NCBI GenBank assembly: GCA_965219905.1
Contig: CBDCOS010000004.1
Coordinates: forward strand, 48,696-112,695
Direction of reading: 5' to 3'
DNA: 64,000 nucleotides
Origin: an uncultured Candidatus Binatia bacterium
GTDB taxonomy: Bacteria > Desulfobacterota > Binatia > UBA9968 > JAJDTQ01
The notes under the pieces are model-generated. The model did no database searches, had not been told where the DNA came from, and saw only the letters and a program-made list of their open reading frames with translations. The position numbers and the translations under genes were made by a program. This document shows positions 1,284 through 61,795 of the stretch, in pieces. How positions within the stretch are numbered: position 1 is the first letter of the stretch; each line of letters opens with the position of its first letter.

Positions 1284-2372
1284 ATGGCACGGAACGGACA
1301 CCCTTTGGTGGTGGATGCCGACGCTCACGTCATCGAAACCGAACGGACCTGGGACTACCTTGAAGGCTCCGACAGGAAGTACCGGCCGGCGCTCTTCGGC
1401 GCTCCGGACGTGGGCCGGCAGTACTGGGTCATGGACGGAAAGATCCGCGGGGTGCGCTTGCCCACCCTGAACGAGCAGCAGCTCGAGGAATTGTCGGAAA
1501 AGACCGGCCGCAGGCTTACCACGCCCCAGGCCTCGCGCGAGCTTGACGACGTGGACCTGCGCGTGGCCCAGCTCGACGACTTGGGAGTGGACGTCCAGGT
1601 AATGCACAACACGCTGTGGATCGAGCGCGTGGCGGACCGGGAGGACGCCGAGACGGCGCTGTGCCTGGCGTGGAACCGCTGGATGGCCGATGTCTGGAAG
1701 GCCGGAAAGGGAAGGCTGCGGTGGTCCTGCGTCGTCCCCGCCATGACCATGAACGAGGCGCTGCAGCAGATCCGCTTCGCGCGCGAGCACGGCGCGGTGG
1801 CGGTGTGCATGCGCCCCTTCGAAGGCGACCGCCACCTGGTGGACCCCTACTTCTACCCGGTGTTCGAGCTCGCCACCGAGCTGGACATGGCCATCGGGGT
1901 GCACATCGCCAACGGCAGTGCCGGGCTGATTTCCCACTTCCGGCCCCGCTACGACCGGACCGGCGGCTTCGCGCCGTTCCGGGTGCCCACGGTGCTCACC
2001 TGCCTTCAGCTCATCATGAGCGAGGTGCCGGAGGTCTTTCCCAAGCTCCGCTGGGGCTTCATCGAGTCGTCCGCCCAGTGGGTCCCCTGGATCGTCAACG
2101 AGGCGAGACGGCGCGCGGGCAAGTCCGACTATCCCGACAATCCCCTGAAGGAGTTCAACATCTACGTCACGGCCCAGACCGATGACGACTTCCCGTTCGT
2201 GCTCAAGTACGCGGGCGAGGACAACCTCGTCATCGGCACCGACTACGGCCACGTCGACGCGTCCAGCGAAATAGACGCCATCACCCGGTTCAAGGCGGAC
2301 CCGACGGTAGAGGACGGACCCAAGCGCAAGATCCTGAGCGACAATCCCATGGCGCTCTACGGCATCGCATGA
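1284..2372 (+). CDS. Amidohydrolase-2 family (PF04909-type metal-dependent hydrolase/decarboxylase), paralog 1
   Basis: N-terminal VVDADAHVIE (HxH-type metal motif) and C-terminal GTDYGHVD. GAGGAG lies 8 nt upstream of the ATG. Confidence 0.8.
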   Translation: MARNGHPLVVDADAHVIETERTWDYLEGSDRKYRPALFGAPDVGRQYWVMDGKIRGVRLPTLNEQQLEELSEKTGRRLTTPQASRELDDVDLRVAQLDDLGVDVQVMHNTLWIERVADREDAETALCLAWNRWMADVWKAGKGRLRWSCVVPAMTMNEALQQIRFAREHGAVAVCMRPFEGDRHLVDPYFYPVFELATELDMAIGVHIANGSAGLISHFRPRYDRTGGFAPFRVPTVLTCLQLIMSEVPEVFPKLRWGFIESSAQWVPWIVNEARRRAGKSDYPDNPLKEFNIYVTAQTDDDFPFVLKYAGEDNLVIGTDYGHVDASSEIDAITRFKADPTVEDGPKRKILSDNPMALYGIA

Positions 2373-2407
2373 CGGCGAGCGATCGCACGGGCGAAAGGAG
2401 AACGGCA

Positions 2408-3496
2408 ATGTCCGGCAATGGAACGCACATGGTAGTGGACTCGGACGCCCACGTGGTGGAGACCGAGCACACGTGGGACTATCTGGATGCCTCGGAGAAG
2501 AAGTTTCGCCCGCAGCTCTTCGGCGGCCCCGAGGACCTGACCACGCAGTATTGGGTGCTGGACGGCAAGGTGCTGGGGTTCCGGTTCCAGAGCCTGAGCG
2601 AGCAGCAGCTCGACGAGGTGTCGGAGAAGGCCGGCAGGCACATGCAGACGCCCAAGGAGGCGCGCGAGCTGCGGGACGTGCAGTTGCGGGTCGATCATCT
2701 GGACGAGCTCGGCATCGACGTCCAGGTCCTGTACAACACCATGTGGATCGAGCAGGTGACGGACCACGCCGACGCCGAGATCGCCCTGTGCGGAAGCTGG
2801 AACCGCTGGATGGCGGACGTGTGGAAGCAGGGCGGCGGACGCCTCCGGTGGGTCTGCGTGGTGCCGGCCATGACCATGAACGAGGCGCTCGAGCAGATCC
2901 GCTTCGCCCGGGAGAACGGCGCGGTGGGCGTGTGCCTCCGTCCCTTTGAAGGCGGCCGGCACCTGGTGGATCCGTATTTCTATCCGATCTTCGACGAAGC
3001 CCAGCGTCTCGACATGATGATGGGCATCCATATCGCCATCGGCAGCCCCAGGATGGCCTCGCAGTTCCGGCCGCGCTACGACAGCGGCGGCGGACTGCCG
3101 GTGTTCCGCATCCCCACGGTCTCCCAGTGCTTCACGGTGATGATGAGCGAGGTGCCCAAGGTCTTTCCGGACCTGCGCTGGGGATTCATCGAGTCCTCCG
3201 CCCAGTGGGTGCCGTGGGTGGTGAACGAGACCATCCGGAGGTCCGGGACCGCGGAATACCCCAGGGACCCCATGAAGGCGTTCAACATCTACGTTTCGGC
3301 CCAGACCGACGACGACTTCCCCTATGTCCTCAAGTACGCGGGCGACGACAACATCGTCATCGGCACGGACTACGGCCACACCGACGCCTCCAGCGAAGTG
3401 GACGCGTTCACCATCTTCAACGGCAACGACACCATCTCCGCGGAACAGAAGCGGAAGATCCTGAGCGACAACGGCCGGGCGTTGTACGGCCTGTAG
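2408..3496 (+). CDS. Amidohydrolase-2 family, paralog 2 (tandem duplicate of 1284-2372)
   Basis: Collinear with paralog 1, roughly two thirds identical by eye (VVDSDAHVVETEHTWDYL..., GTDYGHTDASSE). I chose ATG 2408 because AAAGGAG sits 6 nt upstream. The track ORF starts at 2369, an ATGA overlap with the upstream stop. Confidence 0.8.
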   Translation: MSGNGTHMVVDSDAHVVETEHTWDYLDASEKKFRPQLFGGPEDLTTQYWVLDGKVLGFRFQSLSEQQLDEVSEKAGRHMQTPKEARELRDVQLRVDHLDELGIDVQVLYNTMWIEQVTDHADAEIALCGSWNRWMADVWKQGGGRLRWVCVVPAMTMNEALEQIRFARENGAVGVCLRPFEGGRHLVDPYFYPIFDEAQRLDMMMGIHIAIGSPRMASQFRPRYDSGGGLPVFRIPTVSQCFTVMMSEVPKVFPDLRWGFIESSAQWVPWVVNETIRRSGTAEYPRDPMKAFNIYVSAQTDDDFPYVLKYAGDDNIVIGTDYGHTDASSEVDAFTIFNGNDTISAEQKRKILSDNGRALYGL

Positions 3497-3537
3497 GGCG
3501 GGAGGGGGATACGCCTGTAGTGCGGAAGGGGGATACT
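3490..3537. repeat. 24-bp tandem duplication spanning the stop codon of the upstream gene
   Basis: cctgtagggcgggagggggatacg (3490-3513) is followed by cctgtagtgcggaagggggatact (3514-3537), 21/24 identical. Confidence 0.8.
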
Positions 3538-3540
3538 CTC

Positions 3541-3649
3541 CTCCATCATTTCTACCCCCTCCATCATTTCTACCCCCTCCATCATTTCTACCCCCTCCAT
3601 CATTTCTACCCCCTCCATCATTCCTGCCCCCTCCATCATTCCTGCCCCC
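3541..3649. repeat. 18-bp tandem repeat array
   Basis: ctccatcatttctacccc occurs four times exactly (3541, 3559, 3577, 3595). Two variants ctccatcattcctgcccc(c) follow at 3613 and 3631. A seventh unit, ctccgtcattcccgc, runs into the palindrome. Confidence 0.95.
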
Positions 3650-3651
3650 CT

Positions 3652-3752
3652 CCGTCATTCCCGCGAAAGCGGGAATCCAGGGGTGGCGGGGGGTGCGGCG
3701 GTCGAGGCACCCGGCCCCACCCTGCCTGGATTCGCTTTCGCGGGAATGACGG
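3652..3752. repeat. REP-like palindromic element, copy A
   Basis: ccgtcattcccgcgaaagcgggaatccagg (3652-3681) is mirrored by cctggattcgctttcgcgggaatgacgg (3725-3752) around a G-rich centre. Inverted copies of the 18-mer unit follow at 3751-3800. The element lies between convergent genes. Confidence 0.85.
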
Positions 3753-3815
3753 AGGGGGGCAGGAATGACCGACGGGGGCGGGAATGACGGAGAAGGGCGG
3801 CGGCGGTTCGCCTAC

Positions 3816-26990: not shown

Positions 26991-28742
26991 ATGAAGATCG
27001 CATTGCTCGCGGACAACCTGATCGATCGTATCGCCGCCGGCGAGGTGGTCGAGAGACCGGCGTCCGTGGTGAAGGAGCTGCTGGACAATGCCATCGATGC
27101 CGGCGCCGGCGAGATCTCCGTCCTGGTGGAGGGTAACGGGACGTCGCTCATCAGGGTGAGCGACGACGGCGAGGGGGTCGTGTCCGAGGATGTCCCGCTG
27201 GCCTTCGAGCGGCATTCCACGAGCAAGATCCGGAGCGAGGCGGATCTGGCGGATATCGCCACCATGGGGTTCCGGGGGGAGGCCTTGCCCAGCATCGCCT
27301 CGGTGGCGGCCGTGGAGATGACGTCGCGTACGCGGTCACAGGAACACGGCTGCCGGTACCGTGTCGAGAACGGACGCAAGGGGAGCCCCGCGGCCGCCGG
27401 TTGTCCCGCGGGCACCAGCGTGGAGGTGCGGGACCTCTTCTACCACGTGCCCGCCCGGCTCAAGTTCATGAAATCCCCGCGTACGGAGATCAAGTATGTC
27501 AGCGACGTGGTGAACCGGGCCGCGTTGGCGCACCCGTCGGTGCATTTCCGGCTCCACCACGGGGGCAAGCGGCTGGCCGAATACGTGGCGACGGACCGCC
27601 TTCAGGAGCGCGTGCGGCAGGTGATGGGAGACGCCGGCAGCGAACTGGTGGCGTTTTCTCTCGGAGGGGAACGGCTCCGCTGCGCGGGTTTCGCCAGTCA
27701 GGCGCCCAAGTCCTTCGGCAACTCCCGCTACATGGTGACGTTCGTCAACCGCCGCTTCGTGCGCGACAGGGTGCTGAACCACGCCATGCTCCAGGCCTAC
27801 GACACGCTGCTCATGAAGGGCCGCTTCCCCGCCGTGATCCTCTACCTGGAGATGCCCCCGGACCGCGTGGACGTGAATGTCCATCCGGCCAAGACCGAGG
27901 TGCGTTTCCGGCGCCAGAACGAGATCTACGAAACGGTCCTGGCCGCCGTGCGGGGAAGCCTGGGCTCCGCCGCCAGGGGAAGCGCGCCGTCCGGGTTCGA
28001 AGCGGCCCCGGCCCCGGCGCCGGCGGGAGGAGGCGGCGGGGTTGCAGACCCGTCCCCTCCGTACGGCGGCCCGGCGGTTCATCCCGGTCTGCCGTTCCAG
28101 CCCCGCCACGCTCCCGGCGGAGTCTCGGCCCCCGAGGGCAGGGCGCCGGAGGAGGTCGGCCGGTTCTCGTCGCTCACCGTCGTGGGACAGGTGCTGGGGT
28201 GTTACATCCTCTGCCACGGCGATCCGGGCATGGTGCTGATCGATCAGCACGCCGCGCACGAACGCGTCGCCTACGAAAGCATGCGAGAGGACCTGGAACG
28301 CGGGCGCATCGAGCGGCAGGAGTTGCTGATGCCGCAACTCCTGGAGCTGCCGGTGACCGAGGCCATGGTGCTGGAAGAACAGCTTGGCGCGTTGGAACGG
28401 GCGGGGTTCTCCCTGGAGTCGTTCGGCCGCAACACCTTCTCCTTGAGGGCGGTGCCGGCCCTGCTTGCGGAGGGCGACTACCGCGATGCCGTGCGGGCCA
28501 TGGTGAGCGAGCTGGCCGAAACCGGCCGTTCGGGAGAGCTGCACCGGGGCTATCAGGAGCGTCTCATGACCATCGCCTGCCACAGCGTCATCCGGGCGAG
28601 CCGGACGCTGCGAAAGGAAGAGATGGAGGCCCTTCTGCGGAAGCTCGACGAGACCGAGTTCGCCACCCAGTGTCCCCATGGACGGCCCGTGATGGTCCGT
28701 TTCAGCCGCTCCCAACTGGAGCGGATGTTTCGGCGCGCCTGA
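26991..28742 (+). CDS. mutL: DNA mismatch repair protein MutL
   Basis: IDRIAAGEVVERPASVVKELLDNAIDAG, GFRGEAL, and the C-terminal QHAAHERV. Confidence 0.92.
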   Translation: MKIALLADNLIDRIAAGEVVERPASVVKELLDNAIDAGAGEISVLVEGNGTSLIRVSDDGEGVVSEDVPLAFERHSTSKIRSEADLADIATMGFRGEALPSIASVAAVEMTSRTRSQEHGCRYRVENGRKGSPAAAGCPAGTSVEVRDLFYHVPARLKFMKSPRTEIKYVSDVVNRAALAHPSVHFRLHHGGKRLAEYVATDRLQERVRQVMGDAGSELVAFSLGGERLRCAGFASQAPKSFGNSRYMVTFVNRRFVRDRVLNHAMLQAYDTLLMKGRFPAVILYLEMPPDRVDVNVHPAKTEVRFRRQNEIYETVLAAVRGSLGSAARGSAPSGFEAAPAPAPAGGGGGVADPSPPYGGPAVHPGLPFQPRHAPGGVSAPEGRAPEEVGRFSSLTVVGQVLGCYILCHGDPGMVLIDQHAAHERVAYESMREDLERGRIERQELLMPQLLELPVTEAMVLEEQLGALERAGFSLESFGRNTFSLRAVPALLAEGDYRDAVRAMVSELAETGRSGELHRGYQERLMTIACHSVIRASRTLRKEEMEALLRKLDETEFATQCPHGRPVMVRFSRSQLERMFRRA

Positions 28743-28764: not shown

Positions 28765-29700
28765 GTGAGCCCCGGATTCAAGGTCATCTTCATCGTGGGC
28801 CCCACCGGAGTCGGCAAGACCGACGCCGCCCTGAGCTTGGCATCCCGGCTCGACGCGGAAATCATCAGCGCCGACTCCATGCAGGTCTACCGCTACATGG
28901 ACATCGGCACCGCCAAGCCGACGCCGGCGCAACGGCGGCAACGGCCGCACCATCTCCTGGACGTGGTGGACCCGGACGGGGAATTCAATGCCGCCCTCTT
29001 CAGGGAACACGCCATGGATGCGATGGAAGGCATCCGGGCCCGGGACCGGAACGTGCTGGTCGCCGGCGGCACCGGACTGTACGTGAAGGCGCTGGCCCGG
29101 GGACTGTTCGCCGGCCCGGCGCGAAATGCCGAGATCCGGGCGGGGCTGGAACGGACCCTGGCGGAACACGGTCCGGAGCCCCTCTTCGAGCGTCTGAAAC
29201 GGGTGGACCCGGACGCGACCGCCCGCATCCACCGCCGCGACCGGGTCCGCATCGTACGGGCATTGGAGGTCTTCCAGGCCACCGGGAAACCCTTGAGCCG
29301 GTGGCAGCGGGAGCACCGCTTCGGCGACCGTCCCTTCGGTTCCCTGGTGCTGGGCCTGGAGCGGCCCCGCTCCGAGCTGTACGAACGCATCGATGAGCGT
29401 TGCCGGCGGATGATGGAGGCCGGACTGCTGGATGAGGTCAGGCGACTGCTGGACAGGGGCTACGCCCCGAGCCTCCGCAGCATGCAAGGCGTGGGTTATC
29501 GCCAGGCGGTCGAGTGCCTCACGGACCGGCTGAGCGAAGCCGGCGCGCTGACGTCCATGCAGCAGGCCACGCGCCGGCTGGCCAAGCGCCAGCTCACCTG
29601 GTTCCGGGCGGACCCGACGCTCCACTGGCTGCACCCGGACCGAATGGATGCCGCCGGCGAGCTCTGCAGCCACTTTCTCGAAGGCGCCGCAGTTGACTAG
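28765..29700 (+). CDS. miaA: tRNA dimethylallyltransferase
   Basis: IVGPTGVGKT, ISADSMQVYRYMDIGTAKP and QRRLAKRQLTWFR. GTG start. Confidence 0.9.
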   Translation: MSPGFKVIFIVGPTGVGKTDAALSLASRLDAEIISADSMQVYRYMDIGTAKPTPAQRRQRPHHLLDVVDPDGEFNAALFREHAMDAMEGIRARDRNVLVAGGTGLYVKALARGLFAGPARNAEIRAGLERTLAEHGPEPLFERLKRVDPDATARIHRRDRVRIVRALEVFQATGKPLSRWQREHRFGDRPFGSLVLGLERPRSELYERIDERCRRMMEAGLLDEVRRLLDRGYAPSLRSMQGVGYRQAVECLTDRLSEAGALTSMQQATRRLAKRQLTWFRADPTLHWLHPDRMDAAGELCSHFLEGAAVD

Positions 29701-29715
29701 ACCGGGGTTTGATGT

Positions 29716-29878
29716 TAGTGTCGCGTCCCGTGAGTTCCTGCCATAAGTCGCTGGTCCTTTTCGCCGTCGGCTGCGTTGCTCTTCCTCGCGTGGTGCCCGC
29801 CACTGCTCGTCATCGCGCCTTGCCGACGACAAAAATTCCTGCGCGACTTATGGCAGGAACTCACGGGACGCGACACTA
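29716..29878. mobile_element. 163-bp MITE-like long-hairpin element, copy 1
   Basis: 29716-29751 is the exact reverse complement of 29843-29878 (36 bp). There is an inner stem at 29758-29771 / 29822-29835. The core is nearly identical to 58514-58600. No coding capacity of note. Confidence 0.85.
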
Positions 29879-29885
29879 GCAGCCT

Positions 29886-30851
29886 GTGAACATGATGAAA
29901 TCGGCCGATTTCGTCGAGGCCCGGCGGAGGCTCGAGGCCAAGCCCCAATCCACCGGTGAGAAGCTCACCACCCTGTCAGACGCCGTCGAGAGGGTCCAGG
30001 ACGGCGACCATATCGCCATTGGAGGATGTCTCTTCTCGCGCAGCCCCCTGGCCGCGTTGATGGAAGTGTTGCGCCGGCGCAGACGCGGCCTGACGCTGTC
30101 GCGGAACCTCATGTGCTACGAGGGCGAGCTGTTCATGGCGGCCAAGGCCGTGGACGGGCTGATGACGAGCTGGTTCGACATCGCCCTCCCCTGGGGTCTC
30201 TCCCTCAAGCTTCGCGAGGAGGTCGAAGGGGGGCGGATCCGGTTCGAGGAGTGGAGCCATCTGGGGCTCGGGCTCCGTTACCGCGCCGGCGCCATGGGGG
30301 TCCCCTTTCTGCCCACCCTCACCATGCTGGGTTCGGACCTGATGGGGGTCACCGACACCAAGACCATGACCTGCCCGTTTACCGGAGAGACGCTCTGCCT
30401 CGTGCCGGGGCTTTTCCCCGAGGTGGCGCTGATCCACGTGCATCGGGCCGACCGTTTCGGCAACTGCCAGATCGACGGCTACCCGCACATGGACACGGAT
30501 ATCGCCAAGGCCGCCGCCACCGTGATCGTCACGGCCGAGGAGATCATCGACGAAGAGGAGGTGCGCCGCCGTCCGGACCGTACCGTGATCCCCGGGCTGG
30601 TGGTGGACGCGGTGGTGGAGGTGCCCTACGGCTCCTTTCCGCACGAGTGCTACGGCTTGTACGAAGCCGACTTCGCCCACTTCGAGGCCTACACCGACGC
30701 CGTCAAGGCACGGGGAACCGGCGCCATCAACGACTATCTCGACCGCTACGTCTACGGCGTCTCCAGTCACCGGGAATACCTGGCGTTGTTCGGAGAAGAG
30801 TCGCTGGCGCGGCAGAGACGGTGCGCCGAGGAGCTCCTGGGAGCGCGATGA
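29886..30851 (+). CDS. Family I CoA-transferase, subunit A (glutaconate-CoA-transferase-like)
   Basis: DGDHIAIGG, the subunit A/B pair architecture, and PFLPT. The start may be GTG 29886 or ATG 29892/29895. Confidence 0.75.
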   Translation: MNMMKSADFVEARRRLEAKPQSTGEKLTTLSDAVERVQDGDHIAIGGCLFSRSPLAALMEVLRRRRRGLTLSRNLMCYEGELFMAAKAVDGLMTSWFDIALPWGLSLKLREEVEGGRIRFEEWSHLGLGLRYRAGAMGVPFLPTLTMLGSDLMGVTDTKTMTCPFTGETLCLVPGLFPEVALIHVHRADRFGNCQIDGYPHMDTDIAKAAATVIVTAEEIIDEEEVRRRPDRTVIPGLVVDAVVEVPYGSFPHECYGLYEADFAHFEAYTDAVKARGTGAINDYLDRYVYGVSSHREYLALFGEESLARQRRCAEELLGAR

Positions 30852-46935: not shown

Positions 46936-47045
46936 GCCTCCGTCATTCCCGCTCCCTCCTCCGTCATTCCCGCGGAAGCGGGAATCCAGGGGTAGCGGTG
47001 TGGCGGCTCCATTGCGCCGGCCCCACCCCGCCTGGATTTCCGCTC
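46936..47045. repeat. REP-like palindromic element, copy B
   Basis: Two ctccgtcattcccgc units, then cggaagcgggaatccagggg, a G-rich centre ending ccggccccacccc, and gcctggatttccgct. Collinear with 3650-3740. Confidence 0.8.
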
Positions 47046-56885: not shown

Positions 56886-58478
56886 ATGATACACGCCCGC
56901 TACAGTCGCTGGAACGGAGCCGGGGAAAGGTCGGTCAGGTCGGACGACGTGTTCGACCAGCTCAACGAGCACCTGGACGAGACCGGCGACCTGCAACAGT
57001 CCATGCGCCGTCTGATGCAGCGCGGCATGGGCGAGGACGAGGAGCGGGTGGCCGGCCTCGACGACCTGTTGTCACAGGTGGCCCGGGAAAAGCGGCGGAT
57101 GTACGAGCAATACCAGATCCGGTCGGCCCTCGACGAGATCCAGGAGGCGCTGCAGGACATCGTCGCCCGAGAACGGGACACTCTGAAACAGAAACCCGAC
57201 CGGGCCGAGGCCGAGAAGAAGGACGAGTTCCTCCAGCACCTGCCGCCGAAGCTGAGCGACGCCATCGAGCGGCTGGCCGGCTACGGTTTCGAGAACCCCG
57301 AGGCGAAGCAGGACTTCGAGGAGATCCTGTCCCAACTGGACAAGATCCGCCGTCTGGAAAACTACATTCGACGTGAAGGAAACCTGTTCAGAGGCCAGGA
57401 ATCGTTGAATTTCGAGGAAGCCTCGGAGCTTCAGGAACGCATGGAGGGCCTTCAGAAGCTGGAGGGCCAGTTGTCCAGCAGCCAGCCCAAGGACGTGGAC
57501 ATGGACCTGCTCAACAGCCTTCTCGGAGCCCAGGCCCAGGAGGACTACGAGGGCGTCATGCGGCTGGAGTCGTCCCTGGAGGACGGCGGATACGTGGTGG
57601 ACAAGGGCGACCACTTCGAGCTGACGCCCCGCGGGGTGCGGCGCATCGGCCAGATCGCCTTGAGGGACATCTACAAGCAGTTGAGCCGGGACGCCGCCGG
57701 GCGGCACCAGATCGCCCGCCACGGCTCCCAGGAGATGGTCCCCGAGTCCAGCAGGCCCTACGTCTCCGGCGACCCGTTGAACCTCAATCTCAACGAGACC
57801 CTCAGGAGCGCCCTGCGGCGCGACGCGACGCTGCCGCTCAACCTGGAGCCCAGGGACTTCATGGTGTTCGACTCGCAGTACTCCACCCGGGCCGCCACCG
57901 TGTTGCTGCTGGACATGAGCTGGTCCATGAGCTGGGACGGCCGCTTCGCGGCGGCCAAGAAGGTCGCCCTGGCCATGGAGTCCCTGTGCCGCTCCAAGTA
58001 TCCTCAGGACTATTTCGGCATCGTCGGCTTCTTCACCCGCGCGGTGGAGTTGAAGGCGAAGGATCTGCCGGAAGCCACCTGGAACATGGGAGACCCCTTC
58101 ACCAACCTTCAGGACGGTCTCCATCTGGCCATCGACATGCTGAAGAAGCGGAGCTCGACCCGCAACCAGCAGATCATCGTGATCACCGACGGCCAGCCCA
58201 CGGCGTATTGCCGTCAGGGGCGGCTTTACTGCGAATGGCCGCTGAGCTTCGGGGGCATCAGCCAGCGCGCGGCCGAAGAGACCCTGAAGGAAGCGAAACG
58301 GGTCACCCAGCGGGGCATCACCATCAACACGTTCATGCTCGACGACAGTCCGGTGTTGAAGGGCTTCGTGGACGAGATGACCCGACTCAACAAGGGCCGC
58401 GCCTTCTACACCCGTCCCGATCGTCTGGGACAGTACCTCCTGGTGGACTACCTGCTGGGCCAGCGGCGCAAGGTTTAG
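56886..58478 (+). CDS. von Willebrand factor A (vWA) domain protein with a long coiled-coil N-terminal region
   Basis: MIDAS-like LLLDMSWSM, TNLQDG and IVITDGQPT. The N-terminal 300 aa are E/R/L-rich helices. Confidence 0.8.
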   Translation: MIHARYSRWNGAGERSVRSDDVFDQLNEHLDETGDLQQSMRRLMQRGMGEDEERVAGLDDLLSQVAREKRRMYEQYQIRSALDEIQEALQDIVARERDTLKQKPDRAEAEKKDEFLQHLPPKLSDAIERLAGYGFENPEAKQDFEEILSQLDKIRRLENYIRREGNLFRGQESLNFEEASELQERMEGLQKLEGQLSSSQPKDVDMDLLNSLLGAQAQEDYEGVMRLESSLEDGGYVVDKGDHFELTPRGVRRIGQIALRDIYKQLSRDAAGRHQIARHGSQEMVPESSRPYVSGDPLNLNLNETLRSALRRDATLPLNLEPRDFMVFDSQYSTRAATVLLLDMSWSMSWDGRFAAAKKVALAMESLCRSKYPQDYFGIVGFFTRAVELKAKDLPEATWNMGDPFTNLQDGLHLAIDMLKKRSSTRNQQIIVITDGQPTAYCRQGRLYCEWPLSFGGISQRAAEETLKEAKRVTQRGITINTFMLDDSPVLKGFVDEMTRLNKGRAFYTRPDRLGQYLLVDYLLGQRRKV

Positions 58479-58638
58479 TGTGGTGTCTGGCTAACTCGCA
58501 GCATAATCTGCGGGTCTTTTTCGCCGTCGGCTGCGTTGCTCTTCCTCGCGTGGTACCCGCCACTGCTCGTCATCGCGCCTTGCCGACGACGAAAAATCCT
58601 CCGCATCTTATGCTGCGAATTAACCAGACACCACACTA
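58476..58638. mobile_element. 163-bp MITE-like long-hairpin element, copy 2
   Basis: Arms 58476-58513 / 58601-58638 pair at 34 of 38 positions. The core matches copy 1. Its first three nt (TAG) are the stop codon of the vWA gene. Confidence 0.85.
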
Positions 58639-58829: not shown

Positions 58830-59201
58830 ATGACGGCAATGGCTCTGAAGGAAAAGGTGTCGCAGTTCACTCCCGAACGTCGCCGACGGATCGAGGAGGA
58901 AGCCGAGCGGCTGCATCAGGAGTATCTGACCCTGCAGGATCTACGGAAAGCGAAGGCGCTCACCCAGACCCAGTTGGCGGAAACCCTGGGCATACGCCAG
59001 TCGACCGTAGCCCAGATGGAGAAGCGCAACGACCTGCTGATTTCCACCTTGCGGGGTTACATCGAGGCCATCGGCGGGCGTCTGGACCTGGTGGTTGCGT
59101 TTCCTGACCGGGTGCCGGTCCACATCGGCGGGCTTGGCGAGGCCGACGGGCTGGAAAAGATCCCTCGGACCCTGGAAGGGGATGTGGCCGGGGGGTCATG
59201 A
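58830..59201 (+). CDS. XRE-family helix-turn-helix protein (HigA-like antitoxin architecture)
   Basis: LTQTQLAETLGIRQSTVAQMEKRN (HTH), then LISTLRGYIEAIGGRLDLVVAFPD. The alternative start is ATG 58839. Confidence 0.75.
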   Translation: MTAMALKEKVSQFTPERRRRIEEEAERLHQEYLTLQDLRKAKALTQTQLAETLGIRQSTVAQMEKRNDLLISTLRGYIEAIGGRLDLVVAFPDRVPVHIGGLGEADGLEKIPRTLEGDVAGGS

Positions 59202-61795
59202 TGGAGCGGACGCAGCCCACGCCCATGATGCACCAATACCTGGAGATCAAGGACCGCCACCAGGATGCGATCCTGTTCTTCCGGCTCGGCGACTTCTACG
59301 AGATGTTCTTCGAGGATGCGGAAAAGGCGTCCAAGGTCCTGGACATCGCCCTGACGAGCCGCAACCGCAACAACGGTGCGCCGGTTCCCCTGTGCGGCGT
59401 GCCCCACCACGCGGCCACCCCCTACATCGGCAAGCTCCTGTCCGCCGGATTCAAGGTGGCGGTCTGCGAGCAGACCGAGGACCCCAAGCTGGCCAAGGGC
59501 GTGGTGCGGCGCGAGGTCATCAAGGTCATCAGCCCCGGCACTCTCACGGAGGGGGAAGGGCTCGAGTCCGACGTCAACAACTTCCTCGTGGCGGTTACCG
59601 GTTCCCGCGACGAATACGGGCTGTCCTTCACCGACGTCACCACCGGCGAGTTCCGGTTCACCCAGCTTACCGGGTACACGGCTCTGGCCAACGAGCTCGG
59701 GCGGATTCAGCCCCGGGAGCTGCTGGTCCCGGAGGCCCGGTCCGCCTCCCTCGGACGCCTTCGGGAGGACTATGCCGAGGTGCACTGCACCACCGGTCCG
59801 GACTCGTGGTTCTCTGCCGCCGCGGTCCAGAAACTGAACAGCGCCGGCATCTACCAGGGGCCACATGACGAGTGGCCGCTGGGAGTCCGCGCCGCCGGCG
59901 CCATCCTGGCCTATCTGGAAGACCGTTCCCCCGGGGCGGCGAAGGTGTTGACCTCCCTGGAGCCGTACCGGGCGTCGCGCTTCCTCATGCTGGACGAGAC
60001 CACCCAGGCCAATCTCGAGCTCCTGCGCAGCTTCGACGGCGGCAGGCGCGCCTCCCTGCTGGGGGTCCTGGAGCCGGCGCGCACGGCCATGGGGGCGCGG
60101 GAGCTGCGCAAATGGATCCTCTTTCCGCTGCTGGACGAGCAGGAGATCCGCCGCCGGCAGGAGGCCGTCGAGGAGCTGCTGGACGACCCGGGGCTGCGGC
60201 GGCGGTTGCGGGACGCCCTGGGCGGGGTTCAGGACCTGGAGCGTCTCTCCGGGCGCGTGGCATCGCGGTCGGCAACGCCCCGGGACCTCACCGCCGTCAA
60301 GGACACGTTGCTTGCGCTGGAGGGGGTGCGCGGGGAGCTGCAGCCGTGCGGCAGCGAGTTGCTCGCGGGGCTGCGGTCGGGGTTGGGCTCGGTGCCGGAA
60401 GTGGTGGAGCTGGTGGAACGGGCGGTGGTGGACGAGCCGCCGGCCACGGTCCGGGGCGGCGGCTTCGTGCGCCCGGGCTTCGATGACGAGCTGGATTCCC
60501 TGGCGGCGGTCCGCAGCAATGCCAAGGGCTGGATCGCCGAGCTTCAGCACCAGGAACGGCAGCGCACCGGGATACAATCCCTGAAGGTCCGTTACAACAA
60601 GGTGTTCGGGTACTACATCGAGGTGACCAAGGCCAACCTGCCCAACGTCCCGGAGGACTACATCCGGAAGCAGACCCTGGCCAACGGCGAGCGCTACATC
60701 ACCCCCGAGCTCAAGGACTACGAGGCTCGGGTGCTGGGCTCGGACGAAGAGATACTCAAGATCGAGGCCCGGATCTTCGCGGATCTGCTCGACCGCATCG
60801 GCGCCTACTATCGCCCCATGAAGGAATCGAGCCTCGCCCTGGCGAAGCTGGACACTCTCTTGGCGCTGGCGGAGACGGCCGAAACGCGGCGTTTCGTCCG
60901 GCCCCGGGTGGATTCCAGCCTGACCCTGTCCATGAGCGCGGCACGCCATCCCGTGGTGGAGGCCGCGTTGGGCCGGGGCGGCTTCGTGCCCAACGATTGC
61001 GGGATGGACCCCGAGACCACGCAGATCAAGCTGCTGACCGGGCCCAACATGGCCGGCAAGTCCACCTACATGAGGCAGGTGGCGCTGGTGGTGGTCCTGG
61101 CCCAGATGGGCAGCTTCGTGCCCGCGGATGCCGCCCACGTGGGACTGGTGGACCGCCTGTTCACCCGTTTCGGCGCCACCGATGCTCTGGCGTCCGGCGA
61201 ATCCACCTTCATGGTGGAGATGAAGGAGACGGCCCGCATCCTCAGGCTCGCTACCCCCCGGAGCCTGATATTGCTGGACGAGGTGGGACGCGGGACCAGC
61301 ACCTTCGACGGCATCTCCATCGCCTGGTCCCTGGCCGAGTTCCTGCACGAGTCGCCGCACCGGCCGCGGACCCTGTTCGCGACCCACTACCACGAGCTTA
61401 CGAGCCTGGCCCGGACCCGGCAGCGCGTGAAGAACTTCAACTTCGCGGTCAAGGAGTGGCAGGGGGAAGTGATCTTCCTGCGCACCCTGAAGGAGGGTCC
61501 GGCCAGCCGCAGCTACGGCATTCAGGTGGCCGGGCTCGCGGGGTTGCCGCGTCCCCTGATCGAGCGGGCCAGGGAGATCCTCGGGAATCTCGAGGGCGAG
61601 GAGCTGAACGCCTGGGGGCAGCCGCGGCTGGCGGGCGCCGAACCGGCGTCGGAAGGGGCTCAGTTGATGTTGTACGAGTCCCGGCGGGACCGGTTGCGCG
61701 AGAAGCTCGAGGCCGTCGACATCAATGCCCTTACCCCCCTGGAGGCGCTGAACCTCCTGGAGGGGCTCGTGGCGGAGGCGAGACGAGGAGGCTGA
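59198..61795 (+). CDS. mutS: DNA mismatch repair protein MutS
   Basis: TPMMHQYLEIK, FFRLGDFYEMF, Walker A GPNMAGKSTYMRQ and DEVGRGTSTFDG. Confidence 0.93.
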   Translation: MMERTQPTPMMHQYLEIKDRHQDAILFFRLGDFYEMFFEDAEKASKVLDIALTSRNRNNGAPVPLCGVPHHAATPYIGKLLSAGFKVAVCEQTEDPKLAKGVVRREVIKVISPGTLTEGEGLESDVNNFLVAVTGSRDEYGLSFTDVTTGEFRFTQLTGYTALANELGRIQPRELLVPEARSASLGRLREDYAEVHCTTGPDSWFSAAAVQKLNSAGIYQGPHDEWPLGVRAAGAILAYLEDRSPGAAKVLTSLEPYRASRFLMLDETTQANLELLRSFDGGRRASLLGVLEPARTAMGARELRKWILFPLLDEQEIRRRQEAVEELLDDPGLRRRLRDALGGVQDLERLSGRVASRSATPRDLTAVKDTLLALEGVRGELQPCGSELLAGLRSGLGSVPEVVELVERAVVDEPPATVRGGGFVRPGFDDELDSLAAVRSNAKGWIAELQHQERQRTGIQSLKVRYNKVFGYYIEVTKANLPNVPEDYIRKQTLANGERYITPELKDYEARVLGSDEEILKIEARIFADLLDRIGAYYRPMKESSLALAKLDTLLALAETAETRRFVRPRVDSSLTLSMSAARHPVVEAALGRGGFVPNDCGMDPETTQIKLLTGPNMAGKSTYMRQVALVVVLAQMGSFVPADAAHVGLVDRLFTRFGATDALASGESTFMVEMKETARILRLATPRSLILLDEVGRGTSTFDGISIAWSLAEFLHESPHRPRTLFATHYHELTSLARTRQRVKNFNFAVKEWQGEVIFLRTLKEGPASRSYGIQVAGLAGLPRPLIERAREILGNLEGEELNAWGQPRLAGAEPASEGAQLMLYESRRDRLREKLEAVDINALTPLEALNLLEGLVAEARRGG

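Follow-up and report, generated by a model that had tools for sequence, protein, structure and literature searches.

A probable IS630-mobilized family of long-hairpin MITEs with an invariant center in the class Binatia

RUP of Streptococcus pneumoniae, which is associated with IS630-Spn1 (cf. Croucher et al.), and Nezha of cyanobacteria are bacterial MITEs (miniature inverted-repeat transposable elements) derived from IS630-type insertion sequences (ISs), and Correia elements duplicate TA. The IS630 family itself transposes in a cut-and-paste manner into TA, generating a 2-bp duplication (PMC2170065), and favors TA within CTAG (PMC2170065, reference there to Tenzen & Ohtsubo 1991). Transcripts of Correia elements (CREE/NEMIS) form hairpins (PMC2649163, PMC10969869). 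In REPINs, compensatory changes are common, and the hairpin rather than the exact sequence is apparently the replicative unit (PMC3116915); template switching is known to perfect quasi-palindromes (PMC7202029). Here, a stretch of 64,000 nucleotides from an uncultured Candidatus Binatia bacterium (assembly GCA_965219905.1, contig CBDCOS010000004.1, positions 48,696 to 112,695 of the forward strand) was analyzed; this whole stretch is hereafter called the window. It carries two long-hairpin elements, copy 1 between miaA and a CoA-transferase gene and copy 2 at the end of a vWA-domain gene. These elements very probably represent a non-autonomous MITE of the class Binatia that is mobilized in trans by IS630-family (Tc1/mariner-type DDE) transposases. 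A literature search found no earlier description of MITEs in Binatia.

The transposon identity of copy 1 was assessed on a collection of loci carrying or lacking the element, which are designated by L-numbers (L047, L125, etc.) and total 1.68 Mb of DNA. The collection does not include the source genome of the window, and its orthologous genes are ~70–80% identical to those of the window. Relatives whose MiaA is 84–86% identical to that of the window possess a 33-nt spacer between miaA and the CoA-transferase gene, which reads ...GGGTTTGATGT-TA-GCAGCCTGTG... (or GATGC-TA-GCAG) and thus contains a single TA (L126–L129). In the window and in a 96% relative (L125), the same spacer is filled and reads ...GATGT-TA-GTGT...ACAC-TA-GCAGCCTGTG.... 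Because the orthologous empty sites hold a single TA, copy 1 is an insertion of 161 bp by which a TA was duplicated. In three further pairs of filled and empty loci, TA + element + TA on the filled side likewise corresponds to exactly 2 nt on the empty side, and abutting elements have one TA in common. The empty sites thereby rule out the possibility, left standing in the original prediction, that the boundary TA is merely the palindrome continuing. Occupancy of sites differs between genomes that are 92–95% identical, the element being present in one and missing from the other, which reveals insertion polymorphism.

Two sets of non-redundant canonical 163-nt copies were used for the quantitative comparisons, one of 82 copies and a subsequent one of 29 copies from metagenomes. 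The base at position -1 is C in 69 of the 82 copies and T in 11, and the base at +1 is G in 76; these flanks are replicated in the metagenome set (C at -1 in 27/30, G at +1 in 25/30). The insertion target is C/T-TA-G. A 4-bp YTAR duplication of the IS5 type was considered and rejected: T precedes the element in 11 copies although its counterpart on the right, position 161, is invariably C, and a single T-TA-G stands at the empty site. The terminal inverted repeats consist of 36–38-nt arms, which are 89–100% complementary in the window and 93% paired over the 82 copies.

A transposase with matching ends, which the original prediction suggested seeking in the genome, is encoded by a 1,153-bp IS located beside MITE copies in two loci of one genome (L047:6517-7669 and L086). 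This IS is bounded by TAGTGTACTGTCCCACAAATA ... TATTTGCGGGACGCGACACTA, the same termini as those of the MITE, and over 21 nt at its right end it is identical to MITE arms of that genome. Its 363-aa open reading frame (ORF) matches NF033545, the NCBIfam model of the IS630 family transposase, with 254.8 bits (cutoff 100), and contains DDE_3 (PF13358) together with HTH_23, HTH_29 and HTH_32; the stop codon of the transposase is formed by the terminal TA and the flanking G. Eight IS copies of four related transposases (77–91% identical to the L047 protein) are likewise flanked by C-TA-G and terminate in TAGTGTnnnGTCCC...ATA. The two ends of a single IS differ from each other at positions 7–9 and 15, and the MITE arm subtypes are separated from each other by the same variants at the same positions. 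With the copy 1 empty site, the C/T-TA-G target and these matching termini, the original option of an IS630/Tc1-type MITE with TA duplication is shown to be right. A tblastn search of the window with the L047-type transposase found no copy, in agreement with the earlier statement that none is present there. The partner IS resembles IS630/ISY100 in its DDE_3 + HTH transposase (NF033545), the 2-bp TA duplication and the CTAG preference, as well as in a transposase stop codon located inside the terminal repeat and target (PMC2170065). Unlike IS630/ISY100, the 163-bp element encodes nothing and carries a 105-nt central module composed of the inner stem and the loop, which is absent from the partner IS.

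The earlier suspicion that the two elements belong to a larger family was borne out, with more than 150 copies retrieved from at least 19 Binatia genomes and from metagenomes. When species-representative genomes were scanned for a 20-nt pattern from the loop, at least 116 stretches were recovered, spread over at least 19 assemblies, and a second, different loop pattern yielded 80 further stretches in metagenomes, many of them at contig ends. Viral contigs contained no match to the two core patterns. Among the matches listed, the hosts are metagenome-assembled genomes named Binatia or labelled Deltaproteobacteria, Thermodesulfobacteriota or Syntrophobacterales. In Binatia genome annotation, the hairpins should be masked as a MITE family; they break assemblies, as the many matches at contig ends indicate, and could be mistaken for regulatory RNAs or terminators.

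RUP- and Nezha-type IS630 MITEs, together with the Correia elements, are the closest functional analogues of the Binatia family. As RUP and Nezha are generally described, the family shares with them a small size, the lack of coding capacity, terminal inverted repeats matching IS630, TA duplication, an intergenic location, multiple copies and a hairpin structure. It differs from them, on the same descriptions, in that conservation peaks at its center and is lowest in the arm interior, and the discrete arm subtypes are each self-complementary, as well as in the strong C/T-TA-G target, the location of ~37% of the copies on TAG stops and the uncultured Binatia host. The Correia elements, by description, are similar in their length of ~100–200 bp, inverted repeats around a conserved core, gene-adjacent position and end subtypes. 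They reside in Neisseria, promoters, an IHF site and processing by RNase III are documented for them, and they have no identified cognate transposase, whereas the cognate IS family of the Binatia MITE is identified and neither a promoter or terminator motif, in a scan around copy 1, nor an orientation bias was found for it.

Other variants of the family comprise truncated copies and copies with foreign small repeats in the loop. In four loci (L006:4847-5032, L008:3609-3795, L041:6335-6545 and L071:1918-2104) the loop contains a 26–55-nt insert of another small repeat (…CTGAGCGTAGCGAAGCGGAGTCGAAGGA…), in the same place each time, after CTGCTCGTC; the loop is either a target of this other repeat or a place that tolerates it. 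Core-less mini-palindromes with the same termini were seen once each at L037:2405-2441 (37 bp), L062:7441-7514 (74 bp) and L063:4532-~4585 (~50 bp), and look like internal-deletion derivatives.

In the window, the two copies and their immediate genomic context comprise the following features:

29716..29878, + strand: MITE copy 1, composed of TA + 159-bp element + TA; orientation set by the loop
29716..29717: left copy of the duplicated target TA of copy 1 (target ...GATGT-TA-GCAG..., from empty versus filled sites)
29877..29878: right copy of the duplicated target TA of copy 1 (from empty versus filled sites)
29718..29751, + strand: left arm of copy 1, the first ~20 nt being the IS630-type terminal inverted repeat (GTGTCGCGTCCCG...)
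29843..29876, + strand: right arm of copy 1, perfect complement of the left arm
29757..29771, + strand: 5' half of the inner stem of copy 1, TTTTCGCCGTCGGC; partner 29822-29836, register i+j=163
29822..29836, + strand: 3' half of the inner stem of copy 1, GCCGACGACAAAAAT
29772..29821, + strand: loop of copy 1, 50 nt, invariant across the family
58476..58638, + strand: MITE copy 2, inserted at T-TA-G; its arms are of subtype GGTGTCTGG...
58476..58478, + strand: stop codon TAG of the vWA-domain gene 56886-58478, formed by the duplicated TA and the first G of the element
58532..58581, + strand: loop of copy 2, differing from the copy 1 loop solely at element position 80 (A versus G)
28765..29700, + strand: context gene miaA, upstream of copy 1 (Pfam IPPT, 288 bits)
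29886..30851, + strand: context gene encoding a CoA-transferase, first in a long co-directional gene run, with a GTG start

Both copies are 163 nt long, lie in the same orientation, start with TAGTGT and end with ACACTA; over the central ~80 nt they differ at 2–4 positions, and their arms are about half identical, so that the original account of the pair agrees with the coordinates and the comparison made here. In copy 1, 29716-29751 and 29843-29878 form a perfect 36-nt reverse complement, or 39 nt at 97% when the flanks are counted, and the left arm matches the IS right end TAGTGTCGCGTCCCGCAAATA in sequence comparison; beyond its first ~20 nt, this arm is a stem specific to the MITE. The plus-strand C.A mismatches of the copy 1 inner stem are G.U on the minus strand. 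The arms of copy 2 span 38 nt with 89% complementarity, and both of its single arm mismatches are C.A on the plus strand. The window contains exactly two occurrences of a 37-nt core segment, which none of 100 shuffles contains, and the hairpins fold with z-scores of -12.6, -13.3 and -14.6, no shuffle folding equally well. The only ORFs of the 163-nt element are short frames running into the arms, without synonymous-type variation.

The GTG start codon of the CoA-transferase gene at 29886 lies 7 nt past the end of copy 1, as originally noted, and in the empty-site relatives the gene is called with the same GTG start. In L130 and L131, which represent an 84% MiaA relative, restriction-modification fragments (HSDR_N, N6_Mtase; type I) and a nucleotidyltransferase are found instead of the CoA-transferase operon, which marks the region downstream of miaA as variable. 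A mutL-like gene (26991-28742, by synteny with L127–L131) precedes miaA, and a full-length mutS (59198-61795) is situated just downstream of copy 2; that both window copies flank mismatch-repair genes is probably a coincidence.

The evolution of the arms was then measured on the gap-free alignment of the 82 copies, with slid partners and 500 shuffles as controls. Matched substitutions in the two arms, originally described from the two window copies, are confirmed across the family: 92.9% of the stem cells are paired, compared with 30–51% in the slid controls, and both sides change in 29 of the 36 outer pairs and in 5 of the 15 inner-stem pairs, values reached by none of the 500 shuffles. Stem pairs interchange among all four Watson–Crick types, and G.U accounts for less than 1% of cells on the plus strand. 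Relative to the nearest relatives, 136 compensated double changes (75 of them transversions) and 126 single changes were counted, and the compensated changes are replicated in the 29-copy set, with 41 transversions and 28 transitions. Since all Watson–Crick types switch, G.U stays below 1% and transversions are often compensated, copying of one arm onto the other fits the data, and the arm covariation looks like a DNA-level process rather than stepwise RNA evolution through wobble intermediates.

At position 32, the L125 orthologue of copy 1 keeps the family-typical mismatched T, and window copy 1 has a G that completes the perfect 36-bp stem. This perfecting change and the compensated transversions resemble quasi-palindrome template-switch mutagenesis (PMC7202029), which differs in that it is a mutational process and not an element, and in that it predicts no strand-asymmetric survival of wobble pairs. 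Hypermutability of the arms in situ was not supported, as the orthologous copy pair has 3 differences in the 163 nt of the element, which is not above the 25 in 936 observed in miaA. Because the element evolves no faster than its flanks, the arm differences are old, and purifying selection must act on the loop in lineages that go on transposing. We hypothesize that the arms are kept complementary mainly by DNA copying from arm to arm, by quasi-palindrome template switching or gene conversion, and that purifying selection for a stable hairpin may act in addition in lineages still transposing. The original prediction had named such palindrome maintenance at the DNA level as an outcome that would undercut an RNA structure; it does fit most of the data, the part left over being the strand asymmetry of the residual mismatches. 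Two chimeric copies (L108:464-626 and L009:7287-7449) combine left and right arms of different subtypes with 9–11 stem mismatches, which points to recombination between copies through the shared core.

The loop displays the opposite pattern, its mean pairwise identity (positions 57–106) being 97.6–98.6% compared with ~63% at arm positions 7–36. The invariant loop and the GC-rich inner stem could constitute a cis-acting module required for propagation, for which DNA bending, host-factor binding, or the nucleation of a cruciform that aids synapsis of ends 159 bp apart are candidate roles. Several other explanations of the core were tried and set aside. A derivation from the IS interior yielded only chance 7–9-mer matches; the similarity of GTGGTG-CCCGC in the loop to the terminus GTGGTGTCCCGC, as expected of an internal transposase-binding site, was equalled by 230 of 2000 dinucleotide shuffles; and a sigma-54-like loop motif, recognized by eye, has its spacing wrong by one. 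A small minus-strand ORF from an ATG in the loop to the terminal TAG (~33 codons) was judged non-coding, because its C-terminus varies with the arm subtype, the loop has no synonymous-type variation, and the frame at the end is inherited from the transposase (...GTRH and stop). With more than 100 copies, arm subtypes, chimeras and filled and empty sites, the family provides a natural data set for the questions of what keeps the arms complementary although the transposase tolerates unlike ends, and why a non-coding center stays invariant across genomes with 70–80% identical orthologues.

The residual transition mismatches are distributed unequally between the strands. In numbers of distinct states, plus-strand C.A, which is G.U or G.T when read on the minus strand, outnumbers plus-strand G.T in the outer stem (46 vs 17) and in the inner stem (20 vs 2); when polarized against the nearest relatives, the counts are 65 vs 20 (p = 1e-6), and the bias is seen in both arms. 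The asymmetry is replicated on the 29 independent copies (28/6 and 42/5; polarized 34/11, p = 8e-4). Host read-through transcription was rejected as its cause, given that the wobble bias is the same in both read-through contexts (18/3 and 21/7), and replication-strand bias was rejected because no association was found between local GC skew and copy orientation (mean -0.0001, 60 of 108 positive). In 107 of 111 copies under RNA parameters and in 106 of 111 under DNA parameters, it is the minus strand that has the better fold. These observations suggest a role for a single-stranded minus-strand hairpin in the life cycle of the element itself; an intrinsic mutational bias may be the source of the strand asymmetry. 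RNA is a less plausible form of this hairpin than single-stranded DNA or a cruciform arm, because an RNA comprising the full hairpin cannot start inside the element and the host context is irrelevant.

To describe the genomic placement, the neighborhoods of the 82 copies were compared. No copy lies inside a gene, and the terminal TAG serves as the stop codon of a neighbor in 30 of the 82 copies (~37%), compared with 3–4 in control frames; TAG-stop use is equal at either end of the element (17 vs 15). Copy 2 is one such case, being located on the stop codon of the vWA-domain gene 56886-58478. Because the first base of the element is G, insertion into a TAG stop rebuilds the stop. CTAG is depleted ~14-fold in the window, with 14 occurrences against ~196 expected from base composition, whereas other palindromic tetramers of the same composition occur 135–422 times each, and two of the 14 CTAG sites are created by MITE ends. 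Scarce targets, the many stop codons among them, the rebuilding of the stop and the purging of harmful insertions account for the intergenic position of the copies, often exactly at gene ends. Such stop-preserving insertion, through TA and the leading G in a CTAG-depleted genome, lets the element spread with minimal harm to the host. The orientation of the element relative to genes is random in every configuration, the two orientations numbering 27/30 for copies at the 3' ends of genes, 37/31 for those at 5' ends, and 16/17 where both neighbors are co-directional. Three pairs of loci (L044 vs L050, L076 vs L092 and L094 vs L109) have orthologous-looking flanks, at a shared gene end or spacer, but carry copies of different arm subtypes in the two genomes, the insertion points of L094 and L109 being ~9 nt apart; pairs of this kind suggest either repeated independent insertion into a few permissive TA sites or arm replacement in situ.

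Several points weigh against mobilization by IS630-family transposases combined with arm-to-arm copying. Within the 1.68 Mb of loci, the partner transposase was found in one genome only, in two copies, and elsewhere as one fragment; among the eight IS copies and in these loci, none was found whose ends are those of the commonest arm subtype (GGTGTCTGGTTAATTCG). Mobilization by an L047-type transposase is a presumption drawn from matching termini, and the role proposed for the loop is a guess. Since one IS tolerates unlike ends, transposase binding alone does not explain the perfect symmetry of the arms, and pure DNA-level perfecting explains neither the inner stem's fixed C.A mismatches (70 of the 82 copies have C49.A114) nor the strand-asymmetric mismatch spectrum. 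There is also a variant account, which we regard as possible though on balance unlikely: the element is moved by IS630 transposases, but its propagation needs a strand-specific, single-stranded minus-strand hairpin, the loop is a functional module, and covariation is selected and not just copied. This account would make sense of residual transition mismatches that are mostly wobble pairs on the minus strand, in a replicated and context-independent manner, of the better folding of the minus strand, and of the order in which plus-strand changes persist (T>C 38, G>A 27, A>G 18, C>T 2), which tracks the thermodynamic cost on the minus-strand hairpin. The inner stem is not IS-derived, yet it is paired and compensated; moreover, ISY100 cleaves a mini-transposon only with supercoiling (PMC2170065), and supercoiling promotes cruciform extrusion. 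However, IS630/Tc1-mariner transposition has no known single-stranded step (PMC2170065), the mismatch events are partly dependent through shared ancestry, and a deamination bias intrinsic to the element is conceivable, the loop having a weak trend in the same direction. An RNA form of the minus-strand hairpin is further disfavored, as an internal promoter cannot yield the full hairpin and the read-through context is immaterial. If the strand-specific requirement were real, it would add a structural step to the mobilization of IS630/Tc1-mariner-type MITEs. A more specific version, in which an IS630-ended MITE has acquired a REPIN-like need for a strand-specific hairpin or cruciform arm, with the loop recognized in that form, seems doubtful to us; it would account for the invariant center, the compensated drifting arms and the one-strand wobble excess, and would make the element a hybrid of double-strand cut-and-paste and structure-dependent mobilization.

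The original prediction also offered RNA roles for copy 1, as a terminator for miaA, a 5' untranslated region structure, an RNase III site or a promoter. A host-selected structured RNA of this Correia- or REP-like kind, which might also stabilize the mRNA after miaA, would be in keeping with the very stable hairpins, the strong covariation and the many copies that lie 0–50 nt from start codons or on stop codons, and functions as promoter, IHF site or RNase III substrate have precedents in Correia elements (PMC2649163, PMC10969869). It is nevertheless very improbable, because the covariation is DNA-like, the orientation is random in every gene context and matches to Rfam, promoters or terminators are lacking. 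The mismatch bias ignores the direction of host transcription, the insertion is missing at the same locus in close relatives, and the loop, being invariant, lends no covariation support. Against the claim that the matched substitutions reflect RNA structure, plus-strand G.U is below 1% and transversion pairs are compensated as often as transitions. A consensus scan around copy 1 found neither a sigma-70-like promoter nor an intrinsic terminator or U-tract after the stem, the T-run and A-run that flank the inner stem being in the wrong order for a terminator; Rfam 15 gave no hit at gathering scores over the whole window and none at E<=10 over 29650-29950. Individual copies may have regulatory effects on the host, and nothing points to selection for them.

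Mobilization in single-stranded DNA form through a tyrosine HUH transposase (RAYT or IS200/IS605 TnpA), as for REPIN- or PATE-like hairpins, would reduce the IS630 likeness to coincidence and is scarcely credible. The MITE does share with REPINs a long hairpin with frequent compensatory changes (PMC3116915), and the strand asymmetry and the many copies per genome with few autonomous partners would suit such a mechanism. REPINs, however, use single-copy tyrosine transposases and have conserved ends, a variable spacer and no TA duplication, whereas the Binatia MITE has IS630-type ends, a TA duplication and an invariant spacer, namely the loop. The empty sites reveal a 2-bp TA duplication, whereas IS200/IS605-type elements duplicate nothing; the termini are identical over 21 nt to those of an IS630-family IS in the same genome, and the C-TA-G target is typical of IS630. 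Both insertion orientations occur without GC-skew bias, and no RAYT was seen in the surroundings of any copy, a negative that does not extend to whole genomes.

Other repeats were also noted in the window. At 3522-3777, ~7 tandem 18-bp units (CCTCCATCATTTCTACCC) precede two inverted copies of a REP-like palindrome (CCGTCATTCCCGCGAAAGCGGGAATCCAGGGG), of which a third window copy is located at 46954-46998. In another Binatia genome (L078), this palindrome lies directly against the left flank of a MITE copy, which identifies it as a second small-repeat family unrelated to the MITE. At 1397-3468, a ~1.1-kb segment is duplicated in tandem (spacing 1127 nt, 72–76% identity), suggesting two neighboring paralogous genes.

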